From Eledone cirrhosa (taxonomy: Eukaryota), in the NCBI GenBank assembly GCA_964016885.1, contig CAXHJY010001444.1, positions 1-64,000 of the forward strand: DNA of 64,000 bases, given 5' to 3'. Numbering within the stretch: the first letter of the stretch is position 1; every line of letters starts with the position of its first letter. Shown piece after piece: positions 6,235 to 22,653 of the stretch. Below the pieces are notes generated by a model that had not been told where the DNA came from, made no database searches, and saw only the letters and a list, made by a program, of their open reading frames with translations. The translations under genes were made by a program, and so were the position numbers.

Positions 6235-6430
6235 GGAAAATGTTCAAGACACCGACGACAGAGCTCAAGCCGTTTCGACGCCTATTTCAGTTCCGAAATA
6301 GCCGTCGAAACGGCTTGAGCTCTGCTGTCGGTGTTTGAACATTTTCGTATTACCCACTCTACTACTCTAAGTATTGAGTACTCTGGTGGCTTATGGCCCT
6401 CCTGGTTCCTTACCACACTTCCTTCGTTAT
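6235..6430 (+). mobile_element. Family A PLE-end insert: ~110-bp palindrome (6236-6346) + ~84-bp tail, in (TA)n
   Basis: The inverted arms around ttcagttccgaa are visible directly. The tail tattacccactct...ccttcgttat is shared with the 12987, 13970, 14684 and 22514 copies. Confidence 0.85.
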
Positions 6431-6490
6431 ACAATATATATATATAGGTTTCAAAACATACTTACTTGTCATATATATATATGATTGTTT

Positions 6491-6535
6491 CTGAGGAAGA
6501 CTTTGAGATGGATCTGAAGTATCGAAACTAATAAT
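6491..6535 (+). ncRNA. Degenerate HHR-like motif
   Basis: CTGAGGA-A-(imperfect gactttgagat/atctgaagt stem)-GAAAC; stems I and III are not convincing. Confidence 0.4.
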
Positions 6536-6900
6536 CTGGAGTTTCCTAACTACTATCGATTAGTCACTATATCGATTTATTATGATTAATCAACCTTTTG
6601 AAACGATCGTAAAAGAATGAACTAATAAGGTCCTAAAAAACACCTTTTGTTTTCATTGATCAACAAACACACACATGCGCGCACACACACACACACACAC
6701 ACGCACGCACGCACGCACGCACGCATGCACGCACGCACGCACGCACGCACGCACACATGCAAAATCACTAAGTCTTATTAAGGTTCATGCTTTACATAAG
6801 TACTCCTTCGGGATATATACCAAAATTCAGAGACGAAGAGAGAGATGAAGGATATATATATATATACATATATGTGTGTATATATATATATATATATATA

Positions 6901-7111
6901 TTTTTTTTTTTATTTGGGTGCCCCGTTTTTTTATTTGGGTGCCCCGTTTTTTTTATTTGGGTGCCCCGTTTTTTATTTGGGGTGCCCCCGTTTTTTATTT
7001 GGGTGCCCCGTTTTTTATTTGGGTGCCCCCCTTTTTTTATTTGGGTGCCCCGTTTTTTATTTGGGTGCCCCGTTTTTTTATGGGGGCTCCGTTTATTTAT
7101 TTGGGTGCCCC
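6901..7111. repeat. Minisatellite, 10 copies of ~21-bp (T)nATTTGGGTGCCCCG
   Basis: Direct tandem repeat flanked by (TA)n. Confidence 0.95.
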
Positions 7112-7177
7112 TATATATATATATATAATAAAATAAAACAAGGACGAGTGGATACTCCTTCATTACGTTTATCGGCT

Positions 7178-7262
7178 GGTGACGCGCGTTACGCCATCGA
7201 TCAGCTCAAGGTTCGATCTGTATCGATCTAGGCCAACTCTGTAATCCGCGGCTCGTCAGACC
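7178..7262 (-). ncRNA. HHR motif with enlarged stem II and a GAAA>GTAA change
   Basis: Minus strand: GGT-CTGACGA-GCC..(~55 nt)..GGC-GTAA-CGCGCG-TC^ACC. Confidence 0.65.
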
Positions 7263-19260: not shown

Positions 19261-19770
19261 AGCAGAGTGTACAAGTTTTAATATAGATGAGATTCTACAG
19301 GACTAGAACTGTTTCATTCTTGAGAAATCATCAGGAATCTGACTGTACAAGTAAATATGGTGGTATTTATATATTTTCTGGTGGTAGGAGAGGCTGGGGA
19401 GTGAGATGGGTGGAGGTCATTGGTTGAAAGAAAAGGGAATTCCTTAAAAGCTAATTCTTTAAAGCTATAGTTTATATTTAGAGTGACAAAGGCAGAAAGA
19501 ATTCTATAAACAAGTTCAAATTGGGGTGCCACTCCTTATTTTTAAGCTTCTCTTAAGCTAACAATGCCTATATTTCAGGTGTCTATAAGATGGTTGGGGG
19601 TCAGTCATGGTTGATGGGTTTAAAGAAAAGGGAAATTCTTTAAAAGCTAATTTTTTAAAGCTCTACTTAGAGTGACAAAGGCAGAGAGAATTCTATAAAC
19701 CAGTTCAAATATTGGGTGCCTGTCCTTATTGTCATGTTTCTCTAAGCTATATTTCGGGTGTCTACAGACA
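19261..19770 (-). mobile_element. Longer family B fragment: HHR-like core plus a diverged ~190-bp tandem duplication
   Basis: Minus strand CTGATGA-T-TTC(TCAA)GAA-T-GAAAC near 19310-19334; ~19400-19590 is repeated at ~19590-19770. Confidence 0.65.
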
Positions 19771-20155
19771 CATTCACACGCACACACACATATATAAATA
19801 TACACATATACAAACATATACAAACACATATACACATATACACATATACACATATATATATATATACACACACATACACACACGTATATATATATATATA
19901 TATATACATATATCTGTGTGTGTGTGTGTGTGTGTGTGTGTGTGTGAGTATGTGTGCGCATGTAGACAGACACGCAGAGGGGTAGAAAAACAGATAGGTA
20001 GAGATACACAGAGAGTGGGACAGAAAGATGAAAAGCTATCTATAATCAGGTGGGTTGTAATGTATGACATCAATATATGTGTGGTGTATATGATTGTATG
20101 TAGGCATGTATGTATAAATGTATGTATGTGTGTATGTATGAATGTATGTATGTAT

Positions 20156-20705
20156 GTCGGGTCGTTGGCGACTAAACTGACAACGCCACCAAGGTTTCTT
20201 GGTGAGGAGGGTGACTTTGGACACCCTGCAGGACTAAAAACAAAACCTGTCAAAGGGCAAAAGAGCTCTTAAGACTCAATGGCCATCCAAAATCACTGGG
20301 AGAGATGACCCCTTAGCCTTTGTCAAGGCAGAATTCTAGGAGAAGGAAAACTCTGATATAACACCTGCAACCCTGATGGTATCCAATGATGTTGACTTGT
20401 TCTTTTTGGTAAATATCATCTTGGTTAAGAGAGTGGGACTGGCTTTGTGCAGTGCCTTTGCTCACTATAAAAGCTTCACGGCACAGGCATTGCTTTATAT
20501 CTGGAGATCTCTCTGCACTTGTCGTCACATGGTACCATGGGCCCAGCACTATGTGTCAATAATTGTCACAAGTGTAGTGTGTGTACCAGAGTTTTCAAGT
20601 CGCAGGCTGGACTAAAAAGTCACACTCGTTCAGCGCATCTGTAAGGGTTCTCCTACATGGATATAAAGTAGTGGCCGTACTCGAAAACGAGTTGGCAGCC
20701 ACCAT
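20156..20705 (-). mobile_element. Non-autonomous RTE-derived repeat in (CATA)n
   Basis: Highly similar to 46871-47422; no ORF; carries gagttttccttctcctaga...acaaaggcta resembling RTE-clade 5' UTRs; TATG arrays on both sides. Confidence 0.7.
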
Positions 20706-21059
20706 GTATGTATGTATGTAAGTATGTGTGTATGCATGCATGTATGTATTGGCTGGTTAGGTGGCTGATTCTAAGTTCTGTTGACAGACAGAGCAGTATA
20801 GATATAGAATCCTAACGCCTCTTAGATAGAATTAGCCCACTCAATTATTCATGCAGATAATCTAATATGCAACATGATATACATATATATATATATTGAT
20901 ATATATGTAGATTGGGCTTCCTGTATTGTGTTAAATTGAACACCTGTCTGCTCTCTCGTCACGTACACAGACAAGCATTCACACACATACACACACACAC
21001 AAACACACACACACATATATATATATATATATATATATATGCACACGAACACACACACC

Positions 21060-22075
21060 CACTCTACACACCCTACCACCACTGACCCCCACTCACACCC
21101 GCATTCAACCCTTTCCCCACCACCAGTATACTAACACCTACTAACACCCCCTTCACCACACACACACTCATCCAAACACGCACACACACACCAGTACACT
21201 CCCTCCACCGGCCCCCACACCCTTCTCTCCCCGCTCCACCCTCACCCTTTCTCACACACACACACATCCCACTAACACCTCTACTAATACACACACACCT
21301 CCTCCTCACTCTAACTTTCACACCTACCCATCCTCTCCCCTGTCCACCGCACCTCCGCACACACTGACACACCGACTTTCTTCACTTACCATTCTACCCG
21401 ACTGCTGCTATGCTCTTATCTCTGACCACCTCCCCGCACACACAGACACACAACCCTCCTTCTGCCTTGACCCTCTGACCACTTCCTGTTCCGCGTGCAC
21501 CCCACATCTCCCCTCTTCCGACCAACCCAACCACGGATTACACATATTGAACATCGATCCCAGCATTCCACCACATCCTCTACGGAACTAACTTAAGGAC
21601 TCACCCACTGACATACACTCAAAAAATTATTTTTCCCACACGCTACCTACATCCACAACACGCATAAACACCACACACACACGTGCGTACCACCACATAT
21701 TTACACACTCAGCCTCCGGAATCCTCTCCCCCACCCCTCTGACCCCTCCCCATCCACACACGCACACACACACCGACCTACACCCCACCCCACACACACC
21801 TCTTCCTGAACATGCAAGCCCGTTCTTCCCCCAACTCTTACTTTCACACACACACACACACACACACACACACACACACACACACACACACACACACACA
21901 CACACACGCGCGTACACCTACACACACACACAACCTTCAGCCCTCCCACACACTTTTCACCTGAAGAAGGGCTTATGCCCGAAACGTCGTTCCCCACCAC
22001 CACCCCACTCTCAAGAGCGTGAAACTAATAAACCTTTGTTCGTACTGCCTCTCTGTTTTGTTCCCGTTCAATTTC
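21060..22075 (+). mobile_element. Family E: ~1-kb C/A-rich non-coding PLE 3' region ending in an HHR
   Basis: Colinear with 51049-52195; HHR at 21959-21990. Confidence 0.75.
21959..21990 (+). ncRNA. Minimal HHR motif
   Basis: AC-CTGAAGA-A-GGGC(TTAT)GCCC-GAAA-CG-TC^GT. Confidence 0.8.
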
Positions 22076-22513
22076 TCTCTCTCTCTCTCTCTCTCTCTCT
22101 CTCTCTCTCTCTCTCTCTCTCTCTCTCTCTCTCTCTCTCTCTCTATATATATATATACATATATATATAAATACGTATATATATACACATACACACACAC
22201 ACACGCAAGCACACAATAACACACACACACACATATATATAAATACACATATACAATAAAGTACCAGCAAGCAACGGGCTGGTCAATCGACTTACCCCTT
22301 CCCTTCATACTACTGGCTTTGTGCAAACTTTAGAAACAATTATTTTCTTATAAGTCTTCTCTGCCTTACAGTTAAGCTTCTTCCATATCTATAGTATATA
22401 TATATATATATATACATATATATATATATATATATATGTATATATATATATATATATACATATATATATATACATATATATATATATATATATATATATA
22501 TATGTATATATAT

Positions 22514-22653
22514 ATAACGAAGGGTGTGGTGTAAGGAACCAGATGGACCATAACGCACCAGAGTACTCAATACTTAGGGTAGTAGAGTGGATAATAGGAA
22601 AATGTTTAAACCCGATGGCAGAGCTCTGCCGTCGGGGTTAAACATTTTCCTAT
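22514..22653 (-). mobile_element. Family A tail + short palindrome centred on GAGCTC (22594-22653)
   Basis: ataggaaaatgtttaaacccgatggcagag|ctctgccgtcggggttaaacattttcctat. Confidence 0.85.

Follow-up and report, generated by a model that had tools for sequence, protein, structure and literature searches.

Family A insertions in a 64-kb stretch of the Eledone cirrhosa genome

We analysed 64,000 nt of Eledone cirrhosa DNA (GenBank assembly GCA_964016885.1, contig CAXHJY010001444.1, positions 1 to 64,000 of the forward strand; hereafter the window), in which short insertions within (TA)n tracts consist of an inverted arm, a forward arm and a one-sided tail of about 80 nt. These insertions, referred to here as stubs, belong to a family (family A) whose parent is a Penelope-like element (PLE). 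A preliminary description, made from the letters of the window alone, had reported four such palindromes with a tail, and we re-located all of them, at 6232-6430 (+), 12987-13203 (-), 14683-14882 (+) and 22514-22653 (-). Throughout, coordinate 1 corresponds to window position 13970, and i and f denote the 5'-most positions of the inverted and the tailed arm, respectively. Site A is the outer break, with TAT at 60-62, and site B is the end of the tail, with TAT at 140-142; the predicted cut of a hammerhead ribozyme (HHR) falls after coordinate 42. The reference for coordinates 1-142 is an arm with a tail but no partner at 13970-14111 (+), which begins, behind a poly-T run, at the 5' limit described below.

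Two of the palindromes, both of subfamily A2, have asymmetric centres about 15 nt 5' of GAAAC: at 6232-6430 the inverted tail-less arm occupies 6232-6288, the forward arm starts at 6289 and the tail covers approximately 6351-6430, and at 14683-14882 the inverted arm runs to 14744 (coordinate 2), with the forward arm starting at 14745 (coordinate 8) and the tail reaching 14882. In the A1 copy at 12987-13203 the tail (12987-13066) and tailed arm (to 13131) are separated from the tail-less arm (13139-13203) by a 7-nt filler, and the two arms end on one and the same 5' base, the 5' limit at coordinate -2. The remaining A2 copy, at 22514-22653, is centred on GAGCTC (22621-22626) in the loop of HHR stem III, a type of centre that is rare genome-wide. 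Of the four centres, one is on GAGCTC and the other three fall within the 3' strand of HHR stem II, as had been described. The arms of each copy differ from one another at a few positions, and the copies are therefore not fold-back sequencing chimeras.

Two of the three tail-less solo arms in the preliminary description stood up, both of them A3 copies that end at site A (12905-12975, +, and 50934-51002, -, the latter in (TA)n). The third, at 63134, is instead the 3' end of a 5'-truncated element of about 1.2 kb (62050-63243, +) with the end of the parental open reading frame (ORF) and a whole ribozyme. It comprises the C-terminal GIY-YIG part of that ORF (62050-62466, +; 88-89% DNA identity to other copies, no Pfam match), followed by the 3' untranslated region (UTR) and pseudo-long terminal repeat (pLTR) at 62467-63243 (+), which contain a complete type I HHR motif (core box U3-A8 at 63138-63144) and a tail-less end at site A. 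An older remnant of an arm with its tail, at about 80% identity, lies at 18893-18989 (+).

A second, unrelated family shows the same layout of palindrome and tail in (TA)n at window positions 24297-24460, 12428-12543, 13232-13340 and 19255-19337. The hammerhead core of this family is of the canonical CTGATGA...GAAAC form. Its centres form a cluster immediately 5' of the core box, and the arm without a tail measures about 70 nt.

The parent element and its ribozyme

Through long copies of family A we reached tandem arrays whose unit measures 3,543 nt and is 99-100% identical between repeats. The natural tandem unit holds a 786-codon open frame with a YRDD motif and C-terminal VIY..YIG motifs, and the tail of the stubs is the sequence that leads on into this ORF, for which 653 homologues were found at E<=1e-20. 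Pfam and PDB sequence searches with the parent ORF gave no match, and the domain names reverse transcriptase (RT) and GIY-YIG endonuclease therefore follow from the motifs. This unit bears out the PLE origin proposed in the preliminary description.

The Hydra-clade motifs RWR, DKT, CNCPDRSIC, CNLC and CKH are present in P0001, which has no CCHH, and among the 120 listed of the 653 homologues RW[KR] was found in 115, DKT in 113 and CxCX5C in 114. Family A also shows the layout of endonuclease-bearing (EN+) PLEs, namely pLTRs formed from tandem or partial tandem copies, an inverted truncated copy and a one-sided tail, together with the preference for (TA)n insertion that is a Hydra-clade trait. 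Judged by its motifs, the parent is a 3.54-kb EN+ PLE with Hydra-clade motifs; Naiad, Neptune/Nematis and Poseidon were set aside by domain order and motifs. The accessible part of PMC8557442 describes Hydra-clade PLEs that likewise combine a C-terminal endonuclease, RW[KR], DKT, a CxCX5C linker, absence of CCHH, an HHR and (TA)n targets. These are generally under 3 kb, whereas the parent is longer (a departure from a tendency rather than from a strict criterion), with a long stem II and a U3-A8 core in its intact arrays.

Arrays of three to five full units, 99-100% identical, were found at G000:C1:91.47-91.49 Mb, C1:437.20 Mb and C2:320.55 Mb; in these the first unit is 5'-truncated, the array ends at B, and the frame is open in the one unit translated. 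Rolling-circle copying and recent activity would both be compatible with such arrays. One intact array (L269 4670-7500, G000:C1 near 91.49 Mb) has at its 5' truncation more than 50 repeats, 98-100% identical, of a 55-nt ORF segment (unit 1756-1813), which suggests reiterative copying. Two further coding sequences were also seen: the GIY-YIG end of a different but related PLE family with the same type of linker (L050 717-1133, -), and a long open frame with the endonuclease and RT motifs of a long interspersed nuclear element, which we take to be RTE-like, adjoining a truncated family A copy (L031 ~2500-5497, +).

The HHR that the preliminary description placed in the pLTR was recovered in long copies as a type I hammerhead motif with a long stem II and GAGCTC in loop III. 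In 51 distinct long copies, all five pairs of stem I are kept in 40 and all six of stem III in 44; the core carries U3-A8 in 18, as it does in the intact arrays, and a mismatched C3-A8 in 33. The U3-A8 core is a described variant of PLE HHRs in the portion of PMC4209133 available, and the C3-A8 copies, which mostly belong to one widely spread subfamily, are in line with cleavage being dispensable. An Rfam search of the window returned no HHR match. Stubs begin 3' of the core box and contain no whole ribozyme. A retrozyme-like direct tandem of about seven 299-nt family A units that ends at site B (L272, G000:C2:356029786-356032023) has a whole HHR in each unit, with the distal hairpin of stem II deleted.

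Abundance in the genome and presence in reads

Exact-match searches of the genome found 15,921 tail ends and 7,753 outer-break (A) ends, each running into TATA, and no match to the reversed control patterns. Read-through from the tail into the ORF gave 292 exact matches, as against the 15,921 tail ends into TATA, with patterns that differ slightly. Sampling forty 10-kb stretches at fixed steps (400 kb) yielded ten hits, about one per 40 kb, eight of which were palindromic; the ORF-less minimal form is the majority product of the family in this sample. In the raw reads of three other individuals, between 2,726 and 3,189 reads each were clipped into (TA)n at the outer break, and opposite-strand joints occur in the centre zone (15 of the 22 joints shown). 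A and B ends were both also found in contigs of other organisms. The hairpin inserts are real, number in the thousands and are the shortest by-products of a Penelope-type element; nothing here shows a host function for the hairpins.

Two fixed ends in near-obligate pairs

To the 93 mapped copies anchored on the tail (63 palindromes and 30 others) we added 30 anchored on site A (24 palindromes, 17 of them new), giving 80 palindromes; four long copies and the divergent palindromes L130, L143, L179, L184 and L209, scripted as solo, stand outside the 80, and several mapped inner ends may be a few bases off through chance matches. The preliminary description had the outer break fixed, with a TAT that matches the target, and this holds elsewhere in the genome, where 57 of the 63 tail-anchored palindromes end there, one ends at the tail end and five end internally. 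Long copies terminate at A or at B. The 30 copies chosen by their A end comprise 27 short palindromes with an A end and a tail and three long arms (by eye), and tail-less long copies that end at site A include the window element (at 63243) as well as L224, L226 and L231, which have no partner in the stretch fetched. Because the inverted arm is often the longer one (see below) and tail-less long copies end there, the outer break behaves as a second priming site of the kind described in PMC11167929.

Pairing of the two ends is near-obligate, and paired arms share subfamily and variants. Among 7,581 short palindromes of the A1 subfamilies, 7,457 combine an A end with an arm that continues into the tail (A+B), 74 have two A ends (A+A) and 50 read through on both sides; the A+B share of 98.4% compares with at most 50% if ends were chosen independently. 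Two positions within the arm tell subfamilies apart. The arms disagree at both positions in 45 of the 7,457 A+B palindromes, where random pairing would give about 2,900, an expectation that uses subfamily shares counted by eye from 100 listed rows. Symmetric palindromes were discordant in 4 of 100 listed (by eye; Fisher p=0.004 against A+B). Seven rare variants, two of which are subfamily marks, are common to both arms, where about 0.3 would be expected.

An RT dimer that primes on two separate RNAs from one source locus would also yield matched arms, would make strand displacement unnecessary and would account for the 45 subfamily chimeras. It leaves unexplained why the A and B sites should be so strictly split between the subunits, why the tailed arm stops short more often and why chimeras are fewer than in symmetric palindromes, and we regard it as very improbable.

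Arm polarity and centre junctions

The preliminary description proposed that one tail-primed cDNA copies itself by folding back at a self-complementary motif and is resolved at TAT, which is near the self-priming idea in PMC3846280. Such fold-back would explain arm identity and A+B pairing directly, but the inverted arm could then never exceed the tailed one. It does so (i<f) in 38 of the 80 palindromes; the arms are equal in 11 and the tailed arm is longer (i>f) in 31, the last two classes being as fold-back would have them. Where the arms differ by 10 nt or more, the inverted arm is the longer in 25 and the tailed arm in 3 (sign test p=3e-5), and in L214, L216, L218 and L228 the inverted arm is longer by 0.7-2.7 kb. 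More generally, i and f of long inverted pairs lie hundreds to thousands of bases apart, in either direction, and in 8 of the 80 palindromes the tailed arm ends short of A, as is classic for twin priming. Because fold-back of the tailed strand can produce only i>=f, it cannot be the main route. Centres on a self-complementary motif (TCGA, AATT or GAGCTC), which would suit it, number only 3 of 80 besides the window copy at 22514, and it is further opposed by template jumps within the tail-less arms themselves (L243, L262, L264 and L265) and by the existence of A+A palindromes. As a main route fold-back is already largely refuted, and we rate it as improbable.

The 80 centre junctions show overlaps of 1-6 nt in 39 cases, blunt joints in 12, fillers in 28 and a single 12-nt overlap, and of the 12 fillers of 5 nt or more, five are copied from adjacent element sequence. 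Templated fillers are typical of joining by polymerase theta. Overlaps and fillers differ from copy to copy, and some junctions recur.

This diversity also bears on whether the palindromes descend from a self-copying hairpin unit, comparable to a miniature inverted-repeat transposable element (MITE) or a short interspersed nuclear element (SINE), or arise as an assembly artefact. High copy number and the recurring junctions would fit such an origin. A MITE has one fixed internal junction, whereas inner ends and fillers here vary by copy; four or more subfamilies each make palindromes, the arms diverge from one another by 2.1% (67 of 3,153 sites), raw reads from other individuals contain the joints, and the ends are the same in long forms. 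We give this explanation almost no credence, and the copies appear, as the preliminary description had it, to be of independent origin with no single MITE-like ancestor.

A sharp 5' limit and template jumps

Inner ends are not spread uniformly, in keeping with the preliminary description, but pile up at a 5' limit: of 160 ends, 64 fall in -3..+3, 54 in +4..+10, none in -30..-4 and three beyond. Among 100 listed arms that reach -2, 79 run on into the 3' UTR and 21 stop (by eye); in bystander A2 contexts, 16 of 17 stop at the limit too (by eye). Several arms have poly-A/T at the limit. Composite insertions show that the cDNA can jump to ORF positions 214-960 and then run toward the limit again. 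Eight template jumps were mapped, in 12 of 30 loci that read through into the ORF, and six of them start at -1..3, one at the HHR cut site and one at -14.

The limit sits on TCATTT, which by its consensus we take to be initiator-like. Transcription of Penelope starts inside its pLTR, according to the part of PMC2377424 available. Ends are also enriched at the predicted HHR cut site (6 of the 19 ends in 21..62 fall on 42-44, p=0.002), which is a possible second candidate for an RNA 5' end. A step in the depth of restriction-site-associated DNA (RAD) reads, with molecule ends at L031:8447, 8436 and 8386, was not used for the limit, since AATT sites lie or may form there and enzyme cuts are possible; the contigs of other organisms cannot show starts.

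Proposed paired priming on one RNA

Starting from what was observed, namely the parent, the two fixed ends, A+B pairing, concordant arms, the 5' limit and the microhomologies and fillers at the centres, we consider it somewhat better than an even chance that stubs, which are minimal PLE insertions, were made by paired priming on one RNA, with cDNAs that run to the RNA 5' end and are joined head to head. The element endonuclease would nick both strands of a (TA)n tract to give two 3' ends, a step modelled, like double priming itself, on in vitro work in another clade (PMC11167929). The two DNA 3' ends would pair with the two TAT sites, 80 nt apart, on a presumably single RNA and prime reverse transcription, which would make A and B start sites of the type seen in PAc, the element studied there. 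A-primed RT would lead; B-primed RT would trail, displace the leading cDNA and sometimes stop early, giving the excess of short tailed arms. After extension over about 64 and 144 nt, both cDNAs would arrive at the RNA 5' end; the tips would then be trimmed and joined head to head by host end joining, probably of polymerase-theta type. Long copies and tandem arrays would form after a jump or where the template, being circular RNA or a tandem read-through, offers no nearby 5' end. Stubs, lacking the HHR core box and everything 3' of B, would therefore be dead ends, uncopyable should binding depend, as it does in PAc, on ORF sequence 3' of B.

Several points weigh against this proposal. The limit leaks slightly, with 3 of the 21 stopping arms ending at -6 to about -10, and it is passed by 18 of the 30 ORF-read-through copies. 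There is no clear cap-G signal (G precedes the limit in 2 of those 21 arms), and at the limit lies the tip of a hairpin predicted in HHR stem II. The PAc start sites have neither target homology nor strand preference (PMC11167929), whereas family A has TAT at both sites and pairs them strictly. Later deletions could account for part of the asymmetry of centres, and arms could agree because subfamilies were active in different periods or because conversion took place between arms; the 45 chimeras mean that two templates do occur. The samples, finally, consist of exact matches to young subfamilies, mostly in the first 35 Mb of one chromosome.

Some of these points would be expected if priming were paired but the limit marked a block to RT (a bound protein, the distal hairpin of stem II, or an inability of the leading RT to extend beyond about 60-70 nt) on a template that may be long or circular. 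Ends occupy the 3' strand of the predicted hairpin (-2..+8) up to its loop, where they cease; the want of a clear cap-G signal fits, the 99-100% identical tandem units suggest circular or tandem templates, and the tail-less arms of the second window family are of similar length, about 70 nt (by eye). Stronger GC-rich stems (stem III and proximal stem II) are nevertheless passed with few stops, jumps start at the limit, and in the second family the limit is at another part of the ribozyme, 5' of the core box. We judge a block possible but rather unlikely, and for the limit taken by itself an RNA 5' end to be about twice as probable as an RT stall.

A broader version of paired priming, which we put forward tentatively and at slightly less than an even chance, is that integration of PLEs always requires double priming on a single RNA, close to the 5' end of that RNA. 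Stubs would then be the PLE equivalent of retroviral strong-stop DNA, preserved in the genome, with long copies, pLTRs, inversions and tails following from whether the two short cDNAs jump or meet a template without a 5' end. If so, the transcription start of every PLE family would be marked by its inner limit and could be read from DNA alone.

Comparison with known systems

The layout itself is ordinary for PLEs, an inverted pLTR with a one-sided tail in (TA)n being described in the accessible parts of PMC3846280 (Arkhipova et al. 2013) and PMC8557442 (Craig et al. 2021). The EN+ PLEs in these sources resemble stubs in their head-to-head inverted 5'-truncated copy, junction palindrome, one-sided tail, microsatellite target and partial tandems. 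They differ in a tail of 30-40 nt, compared with about 80 nt here, and in family A the ORF-less minimal form dominates; the same parts propose self-priming or endonuclease resolution and do not describe a fixed inner limit.

Closer in mechanism is PAc, a Poseidon element from Anolis, for which two internal RT starts bracket the tail in vitro and both target strands are cut and extended; a dimer is predicted, and sequence 3' of the RT starts is required (Frangieh et al. 2024, PMC11167929). As in family A, the two start sites lie shortly 3' of the HHR, whose cleavage is not needed. PAc belongs to another clade, however, and its sites lack target homology, whereas the family A sites are both TAT in (TA)n. 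In the part of that paper available, obligate pairing of the two sites is not shown and inversion is not explained.

In twin priming of L1, the second target strand primes on the same RNA and yields a 5' inversion with a microhomology joint; the position of the second site varies, and there is hardly any overlap between the two pieces. Stubs, by contrast, have two fixed sites, and their pieces in most cases overlap completely, which produces a palindrome. Non-LTR retrozymes, as presented in the accessible portion of 10.64898/2026.07.22.740005, are like stubs PLE-derived, ORF-less and made of pLTR sequence, but they are direct tandems with whole HHRs, whereas stubs are inverted and lack the core box.

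In the literature searched, which left out most subscription papers, we found neither a fixed inner limit, strong-stop products or twin priming for PLEs, nor a genome-wide pairing ratio or an arm-polarity test against self-priming. How PLEs acquire inverted repeats and a tail on one side is listed as an open question in the available part of PMC8557442, and the in vitro work of PMC11167929 answers it only in part. Family A, with its thousands of young minimal products next to intact source copies, allows rival models to be weighed by counting and is a useful natural test set for this question. The counts speak for paired priming rather than self-priming fold-back and single out one base as the likely 5' end of the RNA.

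Other repeats in the window

Two longer, near-perfect palindromes unrelated to family A, at 52393-52711 and 53376-53668, are 95% and 86% self-complementary and have TA-rich surroundings, and the one at 53376-53668 includes words resembling CTGAT..GA/GAAAC. Short palindromes outside family A lie at 14407-14468 (perfect, 62 nt) and 12673-12739 (imperfect, 67 nt). A SINE-like family of dispersed repeats, about 90-200 nt long, is present in many copies between 23364 and 59200 (for example at 26662, 27627, 28674, 30461, 36882, 49046 and 54361).

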